From Alphaproteobacteria bacterium (lineage in GTDB: Bacteria > Pseudomonadota > Alphaproteobacteria > CAAHEQ01 > UBA3637), in NCBI GenBank assembly GCA_017559525.1, contig JAFYRI010000012.1:15164-79163 (forward strand): DNA of 64,000 nt, in the 5' to 3' direction. Made by a program: the position numbers and the translations under genes. Shown here piece after piece: positions 426 through 44,913 of this stretch; positions within the stretch are counted from its first letter, which is position 1; every line of letters starts with the position of its first letter. Under the pieces are notes generated by a model. That model worked only from the letters and a program-made list of their open reading frames with translations, did not search any database and had not been told where the DNA came from.

Positions 426-520
426 ATAAAAATCCTTTGTCAGTTATTTTTGTTATTATATATTTTTTTGTTTAAAAGTACAAGAGAAAAAGAATATATT
501 TTTCGATGTCCGAAAAATCA

Positions 521-549
521 TTGACAAAAATAATGCAATATGATATAAT
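521..549 (+). promoter_or_regulatory. sigma70-type promoter (TTGACA-17 nt-TATAAT) upstream of the GNAT array
   Basis: Perfect consensus -35 TTGACA at 521-526 and -10 TATAAT at 544-549 with a 17-nt spacer. It lies inside the first track ORF, which argues for a downstream start at 581. Confidence 0.5.
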
Positions 550-580
550 TTTTCCACTATCTTATGCGAAAGGGAATTTG

Positions 581-1192
581 ATGATTGAAAATTTTGAAAT
601 GCCTTCTGAAATTAAAGGTAAGCGTATTTGTTTAAAGCGTGTAGAGGAAAATGATACAAATGCAATTAAAAAAGTTTGTGATGCAATTTTTAGCGAGGGA
701 ACACTAAAGCGAATTGAAAAAGTAATGGGATATTTTTCTGATGGACCTGATGATATTCCGTCTTTAGTTCGTTCTTTGAATCGTACATTTGAAAAAAATG
801 GTTTTAATTATTTTATTTTTAAAGATGATAAAGTTATTGGTCAAATTAATGGTTTCCCGTGTCAAGGTTATCAACGTTCAGTTGTGACGATTTGGGGATG
901 GATTTCTGATGCAGAAATGCGTAAAGGATATATGAAAGAGGCAATTAAGTTATTGGAAAATGAACATTTTTCAAGAAGTTTAATGTCTTTAGAAATTTCT
1001 GCTTATAATAATTTAGCGGTTCATGCTTTATGTCATTCTTTAAATTTTTATGGCGCGGGTGAAAGAACGCCTTATCAATATTTTTATCGCCATCGCTCTG
1101 ATTGGATGTCAGAACAAATGCCACAACGTATTATTCATCATGATGACATTAGTCAAGCTCATTCTCAGAAACAAAAGGGAGAACGTTCATAG
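581..1192 (+). CDS. GNAT family N-acetyltransferase (RimJ/RimL-like), paralog 1 of 5
   Basis: Shares motifs with the four downstream paralogs (R[IV]xLKR, W[IL]xxxxxGKGYM). Start chosen at MIENF, downstream of the promoter at 521-549. Confidence 0.6.
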   Translation: MIENFEMPSEIKGKRICLKRVEENDTNAIKKVCDAIFSEGTLKRIEKVMGYFSDGPDDIPSLVRSLNRTFEKNGFNYFIFKDDKVIGQINGFPCQGYQRSVVTIWGWISDAEMRKGYMKEAIKLLENEHFSRSLMSLEISAYNNLAVHALCHSLNFYGAGERTPYQYFYRHRSDWMSEQMPQRIIHHDDISQAHSQKQKGERS

Positions 1193-1789
1193 ATGTCTGT
1201 GATGTTCCGATATAATACAAATTGTTGGCCTGACAAACTTGTTGGGCCTCGTGTTGTATTAAAAAGATTGGAGCCAACACAAGAATATGCTGATTTATTT
1301 CACCAAATAATCAGCAATAATACAAAACATTTAACTGATAGTTTTGCTTATTTAGTGCATCAAATTAATTCATCGCAGGCTGCTTTGTCCTTTTTAACAG
1401 CCGCTTATCAAGATTTTCTTTATGAAGCGCGAGATGATTATGGTATTTTTGTCGGAAATGATTTTGTTGGTGCGGTTTTGGTTTGGGGAAAAAGACGCAC
1501 AGATCGTGAAATTATGTATTGGTTAAAAGAAGAAGCTTGTGGTTATGGTTATATGCATGATGCTTTGGATTTAATTGAACAAGAACATGCTAAATGTGCG
1601 CCTCATCATATTTTATTTGCTAATGTTAATGCTAAAGCAAGGGCTTCTGCAGCTTTATTAACAGCACGTGGTTATAATTTGGATGGACTTTTCTTTTTTA
1701 AACGACCAATGTCTAATGAATTGTCTCGAACGGTTATTCAGTCTGCGATGCATTCAATGCCGAAAGATGAGGGGCGAATATATGGATAA
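1193..1789 (+). CDS. GNAT family N-acetyltransferase, paralog 2
   Basis: PRVVLKRLEPTQEYA and YWLKEEACGYGYM motifs. The ATG follows the stop of paralog 1 immediately. Confidence 0.6.
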   Translation: MSVMFRYNTNCWPDKLVGPRVVLKRLEPTQEYADLFHQIISNNTKHLTDSFAYLVHQINSSQAALSFLTAAYQDFLYEARDDYGIFVGNDFVGAVLVWGKRRTDREIMYWLKEEACGYGYMHDALDLIEQEHAKCAPHHILFANVNAKARASAALLTARGYNLDGLFFFKRPMSNELSRTVIQSAMHSMPKDEGRIYG

Positions 1790-2354
1790 AATATTAAGGT
1801 CAAATCGTATTCGCTTAGAAATTTTGTCACCATTGCCGGAATATGCCGAACAATTGTCTGAAATTATTTGTCGTAACCGAGATCATTTAGACATGTGGCG
1901 AGGTGATGTTTTAAAATATGAAACATCCGAGTTATCGTTTTATAAATTGTTAATGGATAATTACTATTATGAACGTAAAGAAGGATATTTTTATCATATT
2001 TTTAAAGGTAAAAAAATTATTGGCCATATCAGTTTGTTGTCTTCTGGTAAATTTTGGGAAACATCTTATTGGTTAGATAAAGAATATACAGGACAAGGGT
2101 ATATGCGAGAGGCTTTAAAAACCTTGGAAAATGCTTGGTTTCAAAAAAGTACAGCGCCTATTACTGTTCTTATAAATCCCGAAAATACACCTTCTTTGAA
2201 AGTTATTCATAAAATGGGATATACTTTGTTTGGGCAGAACAGATATTTGAAAAATTTTGCTATGTTTATGAGGGAACAAAATGTACATCAACCATCATTA
2301 ATTATGTCAGCAAATCAACAAATTTTTACACAAAATCAACATGAGAAGGATTAA
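1782..2354 (+). CDS. GNAT family N-acetyltransferase, paralog 3
   Basis: Start at MDKILRSNRIRLEIL overlaps the stop of paralog 2 by 8 nt (translational coupling). YWLDKEYTGQGYM motif. Confidence 0.6.
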   Translation: MDKILRSNRIRLEILSPLPEYAEQLSEIICRNRDHLDMWRGDVLKYETSELSFYKLLMDNYYYERKEGYFYHIFKGKKIIGHISLLSSGKFWETSYWLDKEYTGQGYMREALKTLENAWFQKSTAPITVLINPENTPSLKVIHKMGYTLFGQNRYLKNFAMFMREQNVHQPSLIMSANQQIFTQNQHEKD

Positions 2355-2356
2355 AG

Positions 2357-2923
2357 ATGATACCATATCCAACCGTAATAGAAGGAACTCGTATTGTGTT
2401 GAAAATGTTATCTCCAACACCGACAAACGCACAAATGGTTTGTGATTTGGTGAAAAAAAATACAATGTATTTATATCCTTTTTTGAAAGAAGTGGTAACT
2501 GATGGTAAAGATGTATTAAATGCCTTACATCACTTGCGTCGGGCTGATAATTTATGTCGAGAAGATGATACGGCATTGTATTATATTTTTCATCAAGGAA
2601 AAATGGTTGGCGCAATTGAGGCTTTGATGTATCCTCATGAACGGGAGTTGCGTTTTTGGTTGGATCATGATGCAAAAGGTAAAGGATTGATGCGTGAAGC
2701 TGTTTTATTGATGGAAAAGATGTTATTTGAACGTAATCAAGATAGAATTATTTTAGGAATTTTAGATAGCAATACGCCATCACTTAAACTTGCAAAGCGA
2801 TTAGGATATACTGAAGATTGGGAAGGTTATTTCGAAATAACATATGATAAATTTCATATGTTAAGAAAAAATAATTCAAGAAAAAGTTTAACTAATTTAT
2901 ATGATCGAACAAATGGTAGATAA
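2357..2923 (+). CDS. GNAT family N-acetyltransferase, paralog 4
   Basis: TRIVLKMLSPTPTNA and FWLDHDAKGKGLM motifs. Confidence 0.6.
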   Translation: MIPYPTVIEGTRIVLKMLSPTPTNAQMVCDLVKKNTMYLYPFLKEVVTDGKDVLNALHHLRRADNLCREDDTALYYIFHQGKMVGAIEALMYPHERELRFWLDHDAKGKGLMREAVLLMEKMLFERNQDRIILGILDSNTPSLKLAKRLGYTEDWEGYFEITYDKFHMLRKNNSRKSLTNLYDRTNGR

Positions 2924-2935
2924 AGGAAGTATATA

Positions 2936-3517
2936 ATGTATCCTAGTAGAATTATAGGACGAAATATTGAGTTGAAAATTTTACCGGCAACTGAGGAAAA
3001 TGCTGAAAAGGTTTATTATGTTATTCAAAATAATAAAGAATATTTGTCTCAATTTTTTCAACGATTGGTTTCAGCTTTTGATAATAAAAAACAGGCATTA
3101 GATATTTTAAAATTTGATGAAGAACAAAGATGGCTTAATAATTCTGTAAATTATTATATTTTTTCAAAGAATCAGTTGATTGGTGAGATTGCTGCCGATT
3201 GGTCTAGGCAAAATAGTAGAGCTTCTATTATTTATTGGCTGGATAAATCTCATGTTGGAAAAGGATATATGTCTCAAGCTTTGAAAATGATGGAAAAGAA
3301 CCTGTTTTTAAATGGGTATTCTGAAACGCGTTTGTATATTGATGCTGCCAATTGGCGTTCTGTAAATGTTGCAAAATACAATTACTATCAATTAAGTGAT
3401 GATGGTAATTATTATTTTAAAACACGTCAAATGTATAATAATCCTCGTCAACCAATATGCCATAAACAAGATTATATTGGACGTTTTTGTCGTTTGTTTC
3501 GGACGCGAAATAGATAA
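2936..3517 (+). CDS. GNAT family N-acetyltransferase, paralog 5
   Basis: RNIELKILPATEENA and YWLDKSHVGKGYM motifs. Confidence 0.6.
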   Translation: MYPSRIIGRNIELKILPATEENAEKVYYVIQNNKEYLSQFFQRLVSAFDNKKQALDILKFDEEQRWLNNSVNYYIFSKNQLIGEIAADWSRQNSRASIIYWLDKSHVGKGYMSQALKMMEKNLFLNGYSETRLYIDAANWRSVNVAKYNYYQLSDDGNYYFKTRQMYNNPRQPICHKQDYIGRFCRLFRTRNR

Positions 3518-6330: not shown

Positions 6331-6388
<58 letters not shown>

Positions 6389-6406
<18 letters not shown>

Positions 6407-19404: not shown

Positions 19405-19778
19405 TGGTCAGATGGTCGGATAATCGCTGGCATATTATAATGGTATGTTGGAGGAAAGTCCGGGCTTCACGGGAATACGGTACTGGATAACGTCCAGGCG
19501 GGGTGACCCGACGGATAGTATAGCAGAAAGCAAACCGCCGATGTTTTATATCGGTAAGGATGAAACGGCGAGGTAAGAGCTCACCGCATTTTTGGTGACA
19601 AAAGTGGCTAGATAAACCCTACCGGAAGCAAGACCAAAGTAAGGCAAACCAAGGTTTACCTTGTTCAACGAGAATTCCTGCTCGGTTGCCGCTAGGTAGG
19701 TCGCTAGAGGGTTTTAGTAATAAAGCTCCCAGACGAATGATTATCGATAACAAAACCCGGCTTATAGATCATCTGACT
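19405..19778 (+). ncRNA. rnpB: RNase P RNA, bacterial type A
   Basis: Universally conserved GGAGGAAAGTCCGGGCT, AGCAAACCGCC, GGTAAGAGCTCACCG, ACAAAACCCGGCTTATAG blocks. 5'/3' ends pair as the P1 helix (TCAGATGGTC/GATCATCTGA), followed by a T-run. Confidence 0.85.
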
Positions 19779-19794
19779 TTTTTTTATATCAATT

Positions 19795-20475
19795 TTATTG
19801 TGGAGTACATGTATAACATTGGGAACCATATTCGGTTTTTGAGCCTGTTATTGCAGTATGTCCGGATGGACAATTTTTGACTTCACTTGATGGACATTCA
19901 TCATTTAAACAAACAGCACAAATGACGCCACATGCTCTAATACCTGTATCTTTTTGAACTTCGGTTGCGGAGCAATCTGGATTAATGCTGCCACTTGTGC
20001 ATCGTTCGGTGCAAGCATAATCTGTGATATTTTCAAAATTTGAATCTTGTTTTAAATCATTTGCGAATACAAAGGTTAATGTTGTTTTATCTAGGCAATT
20101 AGTAATTTTGTTTAGTCGTGTATTATTTTGATAGATTCCACTAATGATGGGGGGAGTATTAGATACCAAATTTTGACATACACTTTTATCAATATTTTTA
20201 ACTTTTAAACTAAAATAATTTGATGGATTAGGAGGAAAAGTTTCTACTGTAATTGAGGTATTTGTTAATTCAAATAAATTTGCATTTTTTCCGGTTAACA
20301 GTTGTTGAGATACAGTTGTTGCTAATATATTTAATTCATTGATTAAATTGTTTGTTTTGTGCTGTGTCATTGCATAGGAATATCCAGCAATTGCACTGAT
20401 TGACAAAACACCTATAATCGCTAATACACCTAACATTTCTGTCATAGAACGACCAAGTTGATTTATATTTTTCAT
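19795..20475 (-). CDS. type IV pilin-like protein (class III signal peptide) with a Cys-rich C-terminal domain
   Basis: N-terminus QLG/RSMTEMLGVLAIIGVLS...Y aligns with the prepilin consensus (G-1, E+5, AIIG at 11-14, Y24). C-terminal 75 aa contain 12 Cys. Confidence 0.6.
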   Translation of the reverse strand: MKNINQLGRSMTEMLGVLAIIGVLSISAIAGYSYAMTQHKTNNLINELNILATTVSQQLLTGKNANLFELTNTSITVETFPPNPSNYFSLKVKNIDKSVCQNLVSNTPPIISGIYQNNTRLNKITNCLDKTTLTFVFANDLKQDSNFENITDYACTERCTSGSINPDCSATEVQKDTGIRACGVICAVCLNDECPSSEVKNCPSGHTAITGSKTEYGSQCYTCTPQ

Positions 20476-20647
20476 GTATTCCTCTTTAATTTTTCTTTTT
20501 TATCAGTTTATAAGATAAAATTTTATAATGCAATCTAAAAAATAATCTTTTTGATGTTTTTTAAAGGTATCTCAATTAAAAAAATCTTTACAGTTTTTTA
20601 TTTTAAGTATATGTTTGTTTTATGTTAATCTAAAAAAGGAGTAAAAA

Positions 20648-31033: not shown

Positions 31034-32194
31034 ATGAATTTTAAAATAGAAACCGGTCGTTCTATGGTTGAAATGTTAGGCGTTTTAGCCATTATCGGTG
31101 TACTATCTATCGGAGGTATCACAGGTTATTCTTATGGAATGGATAAATACCGTGCCAATCAAACAATTAATGATATTATGCTCAGAGCTGTAGACTTAAT
31201 GACACAAGCCAGTCAAGGACGAGACGCATTATCATTAGATGAATGGATTAATGAACCTTTTGTCTATGATTTTTCTAATCCGGCATATTCTGATGATGAT
31301 CTTGGACTTATTATGTTTGATGTGGGAGCCAACAACAAAATTTCTCAACGAGTTTGCGAAATGGTTTATGATGGATTATCTAATTCCGTAATTCAAATAG
31401 ATATTAATGAACAAGTCTCTAACTCTAAAAATGATTGTGCCTCAGACAATACGATGACTTTTTACTTCGAAGGTGGTCGTGTTAATGAACAAGGTGAGTT
31501 AATTTGTGAACCTGCATGTGGTGAAGGGGAACAGTGTGCAAATGGTTTTTGTTTTAGAGAGGATATCCCTGTCGTAACTAAAATGTATGGTAACAATTGC
31601 TCTAGTGATGCCGATTGCGGAGGCTGTGGAGATTGCCTTTATAACGGACAATGTATGCCTACTAGGGAAGGAGTTGATTGTCCTTTAGACAATGGACAAA
31701 CTGGACAATGTAATAATGGACAATGTTTGGCTAAAGAGGGATGTTCAGATAAAAATCCTTGTCAATCAAGTGGAACATATTGTGCCAGTCCGAATTCCAG
31801 TTGTTCTGTTGCCTTTAATGAAAATGAAACGGGGATTTGTATACAACCCGATTTTGTGACACAAAAAGTTAATGGTAAAGTATATTATGTTTCAAATGGA
31901 CGTTTATCATGGTGGGATGCAAAATCTGCCTGTGAAATAATCAATAGAGAAATGATTAGCGTGAATGATGTGGTTGTTGGATGGAATCAAACTGCCTCTA
32001 ATTCTTTTGAACGAACAGAATTAGGATTGGCTTTAAATTCTATTATAGGGCACGGTATTTATGTGTGGATGGAAGAAAAAGATGATTGTTATGCATGGAC
32101 TTTTACTCCTAATGATTGGGGAAATTATGATATTTCGAGTAAAGTTAAAAATAGAGCAACAGACGCCATACACTATATTGCAGTATGTAAATAG
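31034..32194 (+). CDS. type IV pilin-like protein fused to Cys-rich (EGF-like) modules and a C-terminal C-type-lectin-like domain
   Basis: N-terminus ETG/RSMVEMLGVLAIIGVLSIGGITGYSY. Middle carries many C..C..C spacings (CEPACGEGEQCANGFC, CNNGQC). C-terminus WWDAKSAC...YVWMEE...CYAW...AVCK resembles a CTLD. Confidence 0.55.
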   Translation: MNFKIETGRSMVEMLGVLAIIGVLSIGGITGYSYGMDKYRANQTINDIMLRAVDLMTQASQGRDALSLDEWINEPFVYDFSNPAYSDDDLGLIMFDVGANNKISQRVCEMVYDGLSNSVIQIDINEQVSNSKNDCASDNTMTFYFEGGRVNEQGELICEPACGEGEQCANGFCFREDIPVVTKMYGNNCSSDADCGGCGDCLYNGQCMPTREGVDCPLDNGQTGQCNNGQCLAKEGCSDKNPCQSSGTYCASPNSSCSVAFNENETGICIQPDFVTQKVNGKVYYVSNGRLSWWDAKSACEIINREMISVNDVVVGWNQTASNSFERTELGLALNSIIGHGIYVWMEEKDDCYAWTFTPNDWGNYDISSKVKNRATDAIHYIAVCK

Positions 32195-33466: not shown

Positions 33467-34540
33467 TTAACGACCTCTATTTCTGCGACGATTGGAAGAG
33501 AGGGAACGTCTTTTTTTGCTAGAACCTTTTTTTGTATTTTTAGCTTTTGGCTTTTCTTTAACAATAGGTTTTCCATCTTTATCTATATTAAACATTTTTT
33601 GAAGTTCTTCTGGATATCCACCTGTTTCACGTTTTTTTAATTTAAATCCAGGCATGCTTCTTGGGGGACCAGAACGATATTTTAAGTTGTAAATATTAGC
33701 CCCAACCATGTATAATTCATTGACAACATTTTGTATTGTTATATTGTCGTTATTAGCTTGGGCCGTTGCTAGTTGTGTTAATAGTAATTTTGTTTTATGA
33801 CGTTTTACATTTCGTTTGCCATCAGCGCGTTCTTTTGTACTAACTTGTTTAGATAATAAGCTATATTTTTTATTTTTAACAGCTTTTAAAAAATTATGCC
33901 ATTTATTGATAAAGTTGTCTTGTCCAACTTGATATCCGATATCGACACTTAATATTTGAACTCCCCTAGGTTCTTTCATCAAGTCAATGCCTTTTTCAAT
34001 ATAAGCTCGACGATAAATAGTATCAATGACGTCACGAACTTCTGTTAATGCAATGCTGATGCTGTCTTTATATTTCATACCAGCAATTCCCATCGATTTT
34101 CCAAGTTGTTTAGCTGCTTCAAAAGATTTTGGAGATTTTGTTTTAACTGTAGATAGATAAGCGCTAACTTGTTCGGGTGTCATTTTTTCTCCATTTTCAT
34201 AATAAAGAGGAAAACGACTGAAGTCCATGCCATTTGTAGTAGCAATTCCATGGCCGATTGTTAAAACTCCTTTAGAACATATATATGCCCAGGGACAAAA
34301 ACCTTCTGAAATACCACTTACTCCAAGCAACCATGATTTACCTAATTTTTCACGCCAATTTTTATAAGTTTCCGTTTTCATAAACTCTATAACTTCTTCT
34401 TTATTCATAGGTAGAGTTGATTTTGTTTGAGTTATTTTAGCTTTTGATTTTGGTTTTGCTTCAACTTCGGATGTTGTTGCAAATGTTGCAACAGCAAAGC
34501 TAATGGCGGTTAATTGTCGGATTAGTGTTTTTAGACTCAT
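33467..34540 (-). CDS. secreted GH24-like (phage-type) lysozyme with an Arg/Lys-rich C-terminal tail
   Basis: Signal peptide. SEGFCPWAYICSKGVLTIGHG matches the T4/P22 lysozyme E..Y.D..G..TIG.G core, with Cys at the Asp position. The last 35 aa include KKGSSKKRRSLSSNRRRNRGR. Confidence 0.55.
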   Translation of the reverse strand: MSLKTLIRQLTAISFAVATFATTSEVEAKPKSKAKITQTKSTLPMNKEEVIEFMKTETYKNWREKLGKSWLLGVSGISEGFCPWAYICSKGVLTIGHGIATTNGMDFSRFPLYYENGEKMTPEQVSAYLSTVKTKSPKSFEAAKQLGKSMGIAGMKYKDSISIALTEVRDVIDTIYRRAYIEKGIDLMKEPRGVQILSVDIGYQVGQDNFINKWHNFLKAVKNKKYSLLSKQVSTKERADGKRNVKRHKTKLLLTQLATAQANNDNITIQNVVNELYMVGANIYNLKYRSGPPRSMPGFKLKKRETGGYPEELQKMFNIDKDGKPIVKEKPKAKNTKKGSSKKRRSLSSNRRRNRGR

Positions 34541-34692
34541 AAGCATGTCTCCATTTTTTTACTTTCTATTATATATTATATAATAAAAAATCAAAAATGA
34601 CAATTATGTTGTTTTAATATTATGAAAAATAATGGTTTTTGCGATTTTTTATTGCGTAATTTTTTGTTTGTTAGATGAATGTATTACATAGT

Positions 34693-35667
34693 CTAACCAC
34701 GTCTACCACGGCGTTTCCTTCTTGGATTTATCGGACGATTATTATTTCGTGGATTTTTCTTGATAGAAGGAGTAGGTGTTGTTTTTGGTCTGTAATCAAT
34801 ATTAGCTGCAATAAATATGTCTTTATACAAATCAGATGCATCAAATTTGATATTAAATTTTCCTAATGTTGCTAAGTGTGCAGAAGTATCTGTTCCTTTT
34901 TTGCAAGAGTTTGCTAAGTGAACTAATGATCTTTTTACAGTATTGCGAGATTTATTAGGGCAACATACAACATATCTATGTGCATTTTCATAATCTTTGT
35001 TTTTTAAACATTTCCATAAGGCAGCATTTCTGAAAACACCATCTTGTCCACGTTGATATGTTAAATCCAAAATCAACATTTGAATAGGGAGAGGTTGGTC
35101 AAATAATTCCATGCCATGTTTACTCAACATTTTATCATGAACTAAATCAACTTTTAATTTAGCTTCTTTGTGTGCTAAATGTTCTGCATCTGCATGAGAA
35201 ATACCTCGATATCCTAATTCATTAGCTAAACGACGACATTCTGATTTGTTTTTTCCTGCAGTTTTATTCATCCAGCTTTTTATTTCTGAAACTGTTAATC
35301 GTCTGCCACTTTTTGTGTATAGAGGCATATCATATAAAGGAATGCTACAGGCAACCATATTTGTGCCAATCCCTACAGTTGGTTTTCCAGCAGAACATCT
35401 GTAGATATAAGGAAAGTATCCTTCTGATAACTCACACATAGGCATCCATGCATTTAACAGACGTGTTCTGAGAAGGTTATATTCAGATGTTTTCTTAAAG
35501 TCAGGTGTGCCACGTAAGTTAGAATCCATTTTAGGTGCATTTGGATGATTTGCCACACTTTGTGTTGATGAAAATACAGGAACATTATCCTCTTGTGTTG
35601 TTGCATTACATGCAATGTTAAAAAATACTGAGCTTAAGATAGCTAAATGTTGTAATGTTTTATTCAT
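34693..35667 (-). CDS. secreted GH24-like lysozyme paralog with an Arg-rich C-terminal tail
   Basis: Signal peptide. SEGYFPYIYRCSAGKPTVGIG core, again Cys at the Asp position. Tail NNRPINPRRKRRGRRG. GGGAG RBS. Confidence 0.55.
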   Translation of the reverse strand: MNKTLQHLAILSSVFFNIACNATTQEDNVPVFSSTQSVANHPNAPKMDSNLRGTPDFKKTSEYNLLRTRLLNAWMPMCELSEGYFPYIYRCSAGKPTVGIGTNMVACSIPLYDMPLYTKSGRRLTVSEIKSWMNKTAGKNKSECRRLANELGYRGISHADAEHLAHKEAKLKVDLVHDKMLSKHGMELFDQPLPIQMLILDLTYQRGQDGVFRNAALWKCLKNKDYENAHRYVVCCPNKSRNTVKRSLVHLANSCKKGTDTSAHLATLGKFNIKFDASDLYKDIFIAANIDYRPKTTPTPSIKKNPRNNNRPINPRRKRRGRRG

Positions 35668-43398: not shown

Positions 43399-44913
43399 AT
43401 GAAACAATTTTTGAAAAATATAGTTTTCTTAAGCATGATGATATGTCCGATTGTTTCATATGCCTCTTGTCCAGCGGATAAGCCAATACAAACTTTATCT
43501 GGGTGCAAATCTTGTGATGCACCGCAAGCTCTTTTGCAAGTTAAATGTATTACCTGTGGTGATAAGGATATAGATATATTAGAGGTCTGTCCAAATCGGC
43601 AAAGAAAAGGTATCACGACAATTTTAAAGGAATGTCCCTCAGATAAACCTCATCGAACATCAGAAGGGGATTGTTATGCTTGCTCTGATGAAAGTTACTT
43701 TTTTGTTAAGAAAGATTATAAAAATCCTTGTCCTAACAGAACGATACGTAAGGAGGGAGAAAGCTATATTTCTGGTTTAATTTGTTCGGATGATAAACCA
43801 ATATATAGTTTTGGAAAATGTTATGCTTGCTCTGAAGAAAAAGAGTTGTATATTCTAGATAATAATAAAAATCCTTGTTCAAATAGAACGATACATAAGA
43901 AGGGAGAAAGTTATATTTCTGTTTTGAATTGTCCTGATGATAAGCCTTTGTATTCGAAAGGAAAATGTTATGCTTGTGATACCACAAAAACATTAACGGT
44001 ATCTTCTGATATACCTTCTGATATTTGTCCTAATAGACGCGTGGAATTTGGTGAGTCTAAATTTGAATGTCCAATAGATAAACCTTTAAGAGATGCACAG
44101 GATAATTGTTATTCTTGCCTTGAGCCGAATGATATTATGTCACCTAAAAAGGATTCATGTCCAAATCGTAAAATAGAAACGAGAGTAGTTGATGGTTTAA
44201 ACAGAGAAAAGTATTCTGTTTTGGTTTGTCCAACACTGGATAAACCATTAAAAGATGATTTGGGACAATGTCATGCTTGTGATGAAGAAAGTGTGATCAA
44301 AGTTTCTATACACGAATGCCGAAAGGCTTGTCCAAATAGGGTGACAGATAAAGCAGAATATTGTTTGTCTTCATGCCCATCTGATAAACCACAAGTGGAT
44401 CGCAATGGTTTTTGTCATTCTTGTGATGATGTATCGGTTATTGTTATGAAAGAAGGTCAAGAGCATGTTTGTTCCAATAGACAAATGATGAAAGAGTATA
44501 AAGACTATATTTCTTCTCAGATTTGTCCATCGGATAAACCGATTTATGATAAAAATATAAGATGTCATACTTGTATGCCAGATTTATTAGATCATGGATT
44601 TATTCCGTTGAATCCAACTGATTGCACTAAGTTATGTCCAAATAATCATTTGGTTAATGGGATTTGTTCTCCATGTCCCGAAGGACAATTTTGGGTAGAT
44701 CATATGGAACGAAATTTAAACGATCCTTTATCAAGAGAGGAGGTTAAGGCTTGTGTTTCATGTGAGGATGAAAGATATGTATATGATGGTATTTTGGATA
44801 TGGCAAAACGACTGTGTCCCAATCGTATGGATATAAGTACTTGGGGTGGTACATACAGTGCCAATAAAAGTATTGTAAATAAAATTAAATCAATATTTAG
44901 TATTTTTTATTGA
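43399..44913 (+). CDS. secreted Cys-rich tandem-repeat protein (8-9 modules of CP.DKP...C..C...CPNR)
   Basis: Signal peptide. Repeated CP[SAD]DKP-x6-8-C-x2-C modules alternate with CPNR[TKVQ] modules. Near-identical 120-bp DNA repeats sit at about 43721-43850 and 43868-43990. Confidence 0.6.
   Translation: MKQFLKNIVFLSMMICPIVSYASCPADKPIQTLSGCKSCDAPQALLQVKCITCGDKDIDILEVCPNRQRKGITTILKECPSDKPHRTSEGDCYACSDESYFFVKKDYKNPCPNRTIRKEGESYISGLICSDDKPIYSFGKCYACSEEKELYILDNNKNPCSNRTIHKKGESYISVLNCPDDKPLYSKGKCYACDTTKTLTVSSDIPSDICPNRRVEFGESKFECPIDKPLRDAQDNCYSCLEPNDIMSPKKDSCPNRKIETRVVDGLNREKYSVLVCPTLDKPLKDDLGQCHACDEESVIKVSIHECRKACPNRVTDKAEYCLSSCPSDKPQVDRNGFCHSCDDVSVIVMKEGQEHVCSNRQMMKEYKDYISSQICPSDKPIYDKNIRCHTCMPDLLDHGFIPLNPTDCTKLCPNNHLVNGICSPCPEGQFWVDHMERNLNDPLSREEVKACVSCEDERYVYDGILDMAKRLCPNRMDISTWGGTYSANKSIVNKIKSIFSIFY

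Follow-up and report, generated by a model that had tools for sequence, protein, structure and literature searches.

A candidate modular type IVb-class pilin with a cysteine-hairpin tail in an uncultured gut alphaproteobacterium

What does a short gene encode that joins the N-terminus of a pilin to a C-terminus crowded with cysteines, and that is flanked by housekeeping genes? The gene, IKV03_05740 (hereafter the target), lies in a stretch of 64,000 nucleotides (the window) from the metagenome-assembled genome (MAG) of an uncultured alphaproteobacterium. The original prediction, made from the DNA letters alone, took its product for a type IV prepilin N-terminus fused to a cysteine-rich module. 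Our analysis favours, with some reserve, a modular type IVb (T4b)-class minor pilin that is displayed by a single T4b pilus. The open reading frame (ORF) is real, as predicted: it has an ATG start and a Shine-Dalgarno sequence, and its product of 226 residues is identical to the MAG protein MBR5130705.1, which NCBI names 'hypothetical protein IKV03_05740 [Alphaproteobacteria bacterium]'. The target matched no family (0) in Pfam and NCBIfam, so that no direct family assignment is possible. Orthologues from other species (11 sequences of 221-240 residues, 54-63% identity) share 73 invariant columns with it, all 12 cysteines are invariant among them, and the synteny of the gene is kept in another species. 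Its parts are as follows.

19795..20475, minus strand: modular pilin-like gene IKV03_05740, 226 codons plus stop, ATG start (ORF list)
20481..20484, minus strand: GAGG Shine-Dalgarno sequence, 5 nt upstream of the ATG (read in the alignment of 5' regions)
20452..20475, minus strand: predicted leader MKNINQLG (residues 1-8), ending in the invariant Gly-1 (116/116); leaders are variable and hydrophilic
20299..20451, minus strand: predicted α1 helix (residues 9-59), RSMTEMLGVLAIIGVLS..., with Arg+1, Glu+5, Tyr+24 and Asn+34 (PDB profile, AlphaFold2 helix 8-59, entropy)
20026..20298, minus strand: predicted pilin head (residues 60-150), four β-strands and a short helix, with the pair Cys100-Cys127 (AlphaFold2, hhalign, Foldseek)
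19909..20013, minus strand: tail repeat A (residues 155-189), six-Cys β-hairpin, CTERCTSGSINPDC...CGVICAVC (AlphaFold2 hairpin 171-180/183-190; Cys invariant)
19807..19896, minus strand: tail repeat B (residues 194-223), four-Cys unit C-P-x6-C-x17-C-Y-x-C (AlphaFold2 hairpin 205-212/218-224)

The prepilin-type N-terminus and the pilin head

The target begins with MKNINQLG, then RSMTEMLGVLAIIGVLSISAIAGY; with the predicted cleavage site written as a slash, the sequence continues MKNINQLG/RSMTEMLGVLAIIGVLSISAIAGYSYAM, and positions are counted from that site (-1 before it, +1 after it). The hydrophobic stretch that follows (RSMTEMLGVLAIIGVLSISAIAG) is interrupted by Glu+5. Conservation was read from 119 of the 120 best database homologues, anchored on the motif. 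Gly-1 is present in 116 of 116 sequences, Arg+1 in 115 of 116 and Met+3 in 118 of 119; Glu+5, Leu+7, Gly+8, Leu+10 and Ala+11 are each found in all 119, and Tyr+24 and Asn+34 in 117 each. Family leaders vary in length (median 7 residues) and are hydrophilic, and column entropy, about 2.6-3.6 bits across the leader, drops to about zero at -1 and stays near zero from +1 to +17, that is, over 17 consecutive nearly invariant positions. This conservation is far beyond chance. What characterizes the class III signal peptide is a hydrophilic leader of few residues, a sharp boundary at Gly and Glu in position +5 (PMC4471445, PMC10191384). A profile of the target and its orthologues (12 sequences) was also compared with all PDB sequences, and nearly all of the matches were type IV pilins. 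The tract from +2 was in register with that of the fimbrial protein 8tob, which begins TLIEL (E 7e-4), and in weak matches (E ~0.02) Gly-1 aligned with the Gly that precedes Phe+1 of geopilins. On these comparisons we take the target N-terminus to be a genuine prepilin-type (class III) signal. The in-register pilin matches and the homologues bear out G-1, E+5 and Y+24 as the original prediction had them, and its reading of Arg at +1 holds for the family.

To which class of pilins does the target belong? A likeness to type IVa pilins had been proposed, which the comparisons do not uphold; the affinity lies instead with the type IVb pilins BfpA, TcpA and PilS, as judged by the profiles of siblings and by fold matches. 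Short siblings in the same lineage share the target's N-terminus (for example MKNINESGRSMVEMLGVLAIIGVLS...WKYY), and their globular domains match the Pfam models Bundlin (PF05307) and PilS (PF08805), as in P0038 and P0054. A profile of 18 such siblings found BfpA (1zwt, E 2.3e-13) and TcpA (8uhf, E 4e-6) in the PDB. Searched against a database of 5.8 billion proteins, the sibling profile gave at least 7996 matches, one of which NCBI names 'type 4 pilus major pilin'. The best 120 of these at least 7996 matches all fit the Bundlin or PilS model, and no IKV03 protein that could be the MAG's own bundlin-type major pilin was visible among those 120. The target's globular domain matches neither the Bundlin nor the PilS model, and its tie to the bundlin-type siblings comes only via profile-profile comparison: hhalign aligned the target-orthologue profile with theirs over columns 1-121 at a probability of 99.8%, with the target's Cys100 on the first D-region Cys of the siblings.

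An AlphaFold2 model of the target, built with 39 family sequences, has a mean predicted local distance difference test score (pLDDT) of 85.5 and predicts a helix at 8-59, a four-stranded head sheet and two β-hairpins. As modelled, the protein has the lollipop fold of pilins, with α1 packed on an antiparallel β-sheet head (strands 74-78, 86-94, 110-115 and 130-137, helix 96-104; pLDDT 76-94). Cys100 and Cys127 in this head are each more than 90% conserved in the 39 family members. When the model was compared with the PDB using Foldseek, TcpA subunits of the cryo-EM filament 8uhf came first (probability 0.98-0.99), followed by the T4b pilus 9iuf of enterotoxigenic E. coli (ETEC), and there was no rival fold class among the matches. 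The evidence thus points to pilin class IVb, not IVa.

The cysteine-rich tail, the paralogs and the wider family

The 12 cysteines of the target stand at residues 100, 127, 155, 159, 168, 182, 186, 189, 194, 202, 220 and 223. All 12 had been assigned to a C-terminal module; the count is right for the protein, but the tail holds 10 of them (residues 155-223), and the other two, Cys100 and Cys127, sit in the head that is shared with the paralogs. The tail is made of two copies of a ~33-residue Cys β-hairpin repeat with the consensus C-P-x-G-x4-5-C-x(~17)-C-Y-x-C, repeat B being canonical and repeat A a six-Cys variant. No Pfam model fits this repeat, and an exhaustive phmmer search with the tail against 1.84 billion representative proteins gave eight matches only. 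Three to four tandem copies occur in P0259, P0263, P0261 and P0264. The first two are longer pilin-like proteins in which the repeats sit between the head and further domains; the other two carry the repeat with no pilin N-terminus. Because the repeat also occurs in these non-pilin proteins, the tail counts as a distinct module, and in the model it folds (residues 151-226) as two separate β-hairpins after the head, which is the layout expected of a modular pilin in the sense of Raynaud et al. (2021), in which the added module is not particular to pilus biology. The only fold neighbours of the tail are weak ones, among eukaryotic Cys-rich β-hairpin repeats, and it had no significant sequence or fold match to cysteine-rich domains of the furin-like or tumour necrosis factor receptor (TNFR) type. 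No annotation covers this 33-residue domain, for which a family model would be worth building.

A six-frame motif scan of the window returned exactly three such ORFs, at 19795, 31034 and 60625. The two besides the target, each with a putative C-type-lectin-like domain (CTLD), are:

31034..32194, plus strand: paralog IKV03_05795, 386 residues, same α1 and head, Cys-rich spacer, C-type-lectin-like C-terminus (motif scan; CTLD profile matches)
60625..61737, minus strand: paralog MBR5130743.1, 370 residues, NCBI name 'type II secretion system protein', architecture as in the 31034 paralog (motif scan; CTLD profile)

All three genes encode a common α1 and head, including a VC...NC...T(M/L)TFxF signature, followed by divergent tails, and the idea of a common scaffold with differing ends stands. 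The identity on which it was based was put too high: about 80% had been given for the first 50 residues, whereas alignment of the target with the two paralogs from Gly-1 gives 85-90% over 20, 80-83% over 30 and 56% over 50 residues. The 5' DNA of the three paralogs differs at many synonymous sites, from which it follows that the α1N stem is kept by protein-level selection and not by recent gene conversion; gene conversion or shufflon-like exchange between the paralogs was ruled out on the same ground. A CTLD profile, made from the C-terminal 125 residues of both larger paralogs and of 12 relatives, was run against the PDB. Nearly all of the 32 listed matches were C-type lectin domains (the best being CLEC4F, 6jjj, E 9e-4), and we read the larger paralogs as pilin-CTLD fusions. 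In both of them the lectin-like C-terminal domain spans ~120 residues and has the pattern WWDA..AC...W...C-K/R.

How large is the family? Scanning the GTDB genomes for the family motif gave at least 598 matches, nearly all of them in MAGs of uncultured gut Alphaproteobacteria, with humans, ruminants and rabbits as hosts. In 80 of these at least 598 loci there are 103 family ORFs, at least 12 of them in one MAG, with a mature length of 329 residues at the median and 1633 at the maximum and a median of 18 Cys. Judged from such matches, the family comprises thousands of genes across the lineage; the target is the shortest of the three in the window, as had been noted, but the family is not one of three genes. 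Other members carry teneurin-type epidermal growth factor (EGF) or Mucin2 WxxW domains, and NCBI and JGI name some of them 'type II secretion system protein' or PulG.

Three further observations concern these loci. ORFs with a GRSMxEMLG stem in L013-L092 (for example in JAFZGR01, L022 and L067) run to 883-1633 residues and up to 74 Cys. At some loci (L063, L078) three to five short pilin-like ORFs form clusters. A few members come from MAGs labelled Acidaminococcaceae, Gastranaerophilales or Eubacteriales (L033, L079, L083); these contigs are probably alphaproteobacterial and mis-binned.

The assembly machinery and the weighing of alternatives

Does the organism have a machine that could handle such proteins? 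The window holds no assembly genes, and there are none within 10 kb of seven pilin-like genes examined (the target, both paralogs, P0030, P0038, P0080 and P0119), whose neighbours are only housekeeping genes. The motif scan of the 80 GTDB loci found one T2SSE ATPase, which lies inside an operon in a related MAG (L084). This operon encodes, in order, a 383-residue protein, a TcpQ-domain protein, a secretin, PAP_PilO, a 337-residue protein, the T2SSE ATPase and the T2SSF platform protein, and directly after the platform gene comes a pilin gene whose product starts MTSKNTVQSGRSMVEMLGTLAIIGVLS. The same operon occurs in other contigs, preceded by a two-component system, and the MAG of the target has it too:

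IKV03_00675-00705 (MBR5129726-MBR5129732): R64/Bfp-type T4b operon in the target's own MAG, encoding platform, ATPase, PilP-like, PilO2, PilN secretin and TcpQ proteins

The locus-tag prefix IKV03, shared with the target (IKV03_05740), places this operon in the target's own genome. Its products have consecutive accessions; IKV03_00685, IKV03_00695 and IKV03_00705 are named 'hypothetical protein', and NCBI names one protein of the MAG operon 'type 4b pilus protein PilO2'. The secretin belongs to the PilN family of T4b pili (NCBIfam TIGR02520, 283.6 bits, just below the cutoff of 287.65), PF06864 PAP_PilO and PF10671 TcpQ domains are present, and the unnamed operon protein has a weak NCBIfam assignment to PilP. 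The genes stand in the same order as bfpG-B-C-U-D-E and as those of IncI-type and Bosea plasmid T4b clusters, and the ATPase has 35-38% identity to those of the T4b systems compared. By its gene content the machinery is of the T4b type (PilN secretin, PilO2/BfpC, TcpQ/BfpG), not the type IVa PilMNOPQ or type II secretion system (T2SS) GspCLM type. No gsp-specific genes (GspC, L, M) were seen at any locus examined, and the target has no match to the NCBIfam pseudopilin families (GspG/H/I/J/K). The operon has one ATPase only and no retraction ATPase. A genome with no prepilin peptidase and no assembly genes had been named as the finding that would speak for a mere membrane anchor. As regards the assembly genes this does not apply, for the T4b operon in the same MAG supplies an ATPase, a platform protein and a secretin, and the peptidase is the part that was not found in the DNA searched.

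The operon region of this MAG (L093, 1-16006) also has a response regulator, a histidine kinase and a TrbC/VirB2-like gene upstream of the operon. Downstream lies a convergent gene for a 695-residue protein with a Cys-rich N-terminal part and ~13 'TGTATSE.GGQL.GISSSGTITAQ' repeats, and assemblies tend to break at this place.

Prepilin peptidases of family A24 were sought with a GxGDxK motif scan, with phmmer using E. coli GspO, and with a hidden Markov model of BfpP, IncI-type A24 and GspO. In a metagenome scan with the platform protein, the operon ended at T2SSF in every copy seen, with no A24 gene. The N-terminal extension of the ATPase was considered as a fused peptidase and ruled out because it is of low complexity. 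The T4b operons of Bosea (pANAM02, L109) and Methylorubrum (AM1 megaplasmid, L112) likewise have no A24 gene within ±12 kb, so that an unlinked peptidase would not be unusual. We infer that the target is processed as a prepilin.

How would the target work as a modular T4b minor pilin? As is established for pilins, the protein would be inserted into the inner membrane by the signal recognition particle (SRP)/Sec route and then be cut after Gly8 by a prepilin peptidase, so that Arg becomes residue +1. Six disulfides would form in the periplasm. The MAG's single R64/Bfp-type T4b machine would then extract the protein and dock it into a filament consisting of bundlin-type major pilins with the same invariant α1N. 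There it would be a low-abundance, probably tip-located subunit with its rigid Cys-hairpin tail exposed. There are documented cases both of modular pilins and of T4b minor pilins at the tip (PMC8179133, PMC10191384), and CofB, TcpB, R64 PilV and S. sanguinis PilB are the models from which we infer incorporation into the filament and a place at the tip. In larger relatives the Cys-hairpin repeat would be a stalk bearing lectin-like or EGF-like domains. Most likely the family supplies alternative adhesive tips for one pilus, and the target, which has the stalk only, may serve as a minimal adhesin, or else as a subunit that caps or primes the filament.

Several points weigh against this view. The target gene is unlinked to the T4b operon, and the window, the operon loci and 5060 ORFs of 1.51 Mb of lineage DNA yielded no A24 prepilin peptidase. 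The target does not match the curated N_methyl models (Pfam PF07963 / TIGR02532) at E ≤ 1; paralogs and siblings score 10.6-15.3 bits, below the cutoff of 21.2, likely because Arg-Ser-Met replaces the usual Phe/Met-Thr-Leu. We know of no characterised pilin for which Arg at +1 has been described, and the preferred reading supposes it to be compatible with cleavage or methylation. The hhalign score comes mostly from the N-terminal 45 residues, and the Foldseek E-values are weak (about 1e-2). After the hydrophobic tract, moreover, stands a small-residue motif A-I-A/G (residues 28-31), which could in principle be a site for signal peptidase I.

This last motif suits another explanation, namely that the N-terminus is a membrane anchor or an ordinary Sec signal: the protein would be tethered in the inner membrane or cut by signal peptidase I at A-I-A/G, its Cys-rich domain would stay in the periplasm, and no filament would be involved. 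The missing peptidase, the distance of the gene from the pilus operon and the lack of an N_methyl match would fit as well. We nevertheless think it improbable: ordinary signals and anchors do not keep 17 consecutive positions nearly invariant in 119 homologues, Gly-1 and Glu+5 without exception, the α1 covered by the homology to BfpA and TcpA belongs to the mature protein, and there is a T4b machine in the same MAG and, in L084, a family member inside the operon itself.

Somewhat less improbable, though still unlikely, is that the proteins with this class III signal are cargo rather than filament subunits: the T4b-like machine would act like a T2SS or like the archaeal bindosome, pushing them out or holding them in a pseudopilus that stays very short, with the Cys-rich tails as binding proteins that are either released or kept on the cell surface. 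Genes as numerous as 103 in 80 loci, with at least 12 in one MAG and products of up to 1633 residues, are hard to fit to one pilus; the single ATPase with no retraction ATPase, and the 'type II secretion system protein' and PulG names given to some members, agree with such a role, for which the bindosome sugar-binding proteins with class III signals are a precedent (PMC4471445). Yet components of the GspC/L/M type did not turn up at the loci examined, and the secretin, PilO2 and TcpQ belong to the type found in T4b pili. The lineage also abounds in bona fide bundlin-type major pilins that share this α1N, and the invariant Glu+5 and the α1N assembly interface are what would be expected of co-polymerising subunits. 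Could the target simply be decaying, a functionless remnant of the larger lectin-tipped pilins that has lost its CTLD? It has no such domain, and both other paralogs are longer, but 11 orthologues of the same length with 73 invariant columns that include all 12 Cys, the conserved synteny, and an intact start codon and Shine-Dalgarno sequence make this very hard to believe.

We therefore retain the modular T4b minor pilin as the preferred reading. A bolder proposal, which we regard as tentative and on balance doubtful, is that one T4b machine serves this uncultured gut alphaproteobacterial lineage as a general display platform for a large and diversifying repertoire of eukaryote-like modules on an invariant Arg+1 stem. 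The repertoire appears to take in Cys-hairpin stalks and C-type-lectin-like, EGF-like and mucin WxxW domains, in proteins of up to ~1600 residues, and processing might then fall to a non-canonical or highly divergent peptidase.

Surroundings, known systems and meaning

The source contig of 104.9 kb occurs in several ruminant gut assemblies, and the G+C content of the window is ~35%. Upstream of the target, and divergently transcribed, is a LemA gene; the gene for RNase P RNA (19408-19780, plus strand, 297.6 bits) runs convergently towards the target, and its end lies 15 nt from the target's stop codon. Hexamers resembling a promoter, at 20628-20600, occur no more often than in shuffled sequence, and the 10 kb of contig to the left of the window hold housekeeping genes only. 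Other RNAs in the window are the SRP RNA (53942-54036, plus strand), tRNA-Thr(TGT) (6331-6406) and tRNA-Pro(TGG) (11942-12018).

Several other loci in the window may be recorded here. The gene at 43399-44913 (plus strand) has a product of 504 residues that carries a Sec-type signal peptide and is composed of about ten Cys-rich repeats (pattern CP(S/x)DKP...G.C(Y/H).C); without a match in Pfam, it is a second lineage-specific disulfide-rich repeat protein. Adjacent genes at 33467-34546 and 34693-35667 (both minus strand) encode paralogous signal-peptide proteins with a lysozyme-like '...G..T(I/V)G.G...' motif, very Arg/Lys-rich C-termini and no Pfam match. Five tandem GNAT-family N-acetyltransferase genes occupy 506-3517 (plus strand). 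A polytopic membrane protein with CVVC (10226-10759, plus strand) lies near a lipoprotein-type glutaredoxin-like protein with CPYC (11345-11752, plus strand), and together they could form a thiol-disulfide pair in the periplasm for the many exported proteins that are rich in Cys.

How does the target compare with known systems? Each of the general kinds, type IVb pili, modular pilins and minor pilins at the tip, is already known. With the type IVb major pilins BfpA of enteropathogenic E. coli (EPEC), TcpA of V. cholerae and PilS of R64 and S. Typhi the target shares the class III signal, Gly-1, Glu+5, a long α1 helix and a disulfide-closed αβ head, but it has a far smaller head (~90 residues, 26 of them separating the two Cys) and, after it, a 75-residue Cys-rich tail. 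Classical T4b pilin leaders have 13-25 residues, whereas that of the target has 8, the family median is 7, and +1 is an invariant Arg. A long leader is, however, considered non-discriminatory as a T4b criterion (PMC10191384). The target resembles modular or large minor pilins (S. sanguinis PilB with its von Willebrand factor A domain and PilC with its lectin domain, ETEC CofB, V. cholerae TcpB, R64 PilV) in joining a pilin to a grafted C-terminal module, here the Cys β-hairpin repeat for which no annotation exists; similarity in sequence to the tails of CofB, TcpB or PilB was not detected. R64 PilV, too, has alternative C-terminal ends on one scaffold. In the present family the alternatives are instead dispersed genes, many per genome, and not one gene or a shufflon. 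A point in common is that T4b systems are described as having one large minor pilin at the tip (PMC8179133, PMC10191384). The T4b cluster of Bosea pANAM02 (L109), whose gene order is that of the lineage operon, contains a 473-residue PilV-like large pilin (G/LTLLEV).

The T2SS pseudopilins GspG-K have the short leader, Gly-1 and Glu+5 in common with the target, but its machine is of the PilN/PilO2/TcpQ type and the relatives of its head are bundlin-like. In the archaeal bindosome (S. solfataricus, Bas system) many functionally diverse binding proteins likewise carry a pilin-type signal and depend on a single machine resembling that of type IV filaments (PMC4471445); there is no sequence relation, and the lineage discussed here has a clear pilin head and major pilins. 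Tandem short disulfide-laddered β-hairpins like those of the tail are also found in the eukaryotic furin-like repeats of R-spondin, the TNFR cysteine-rich domains and the cysteine-rich domain of class C G-protein-coupled receptors. In the open-access literature we found no description of a lineage-wide family with an invariant Arg+1 and a short leader on a T4b-type pilin, of many dispersed paralogs per genome with Cys-rich, eukaryote-like modules, or of the 33-residue Cys-hairpin repeat, and open-access text on the lineage together with pili held nothing relevant.

With modular pilins, which were recognised only recently, bacteria can equip one filament for many functions, and to our knowledge the known cases involve one or two genes per organism. 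The family is accordingly a more interesting object than the target gene, which is a modest member of it. The lineage is common in the guts of humans, ruminants and rabbits, has never been cultured, and has many pilin genes per genome, whose products combine an identical stem with very different ends that are often eukaryote-like and either Cys-rich or lectin-like. If these proteins are indeed displayed on one T4b pilus, they would be prime candidates for attachment to mucus, host glycans or other microbes, and the invariant Arg+1 would test the tolerance of prepilin peptidases and of the step in which Glu5 and the N-terminus dock.

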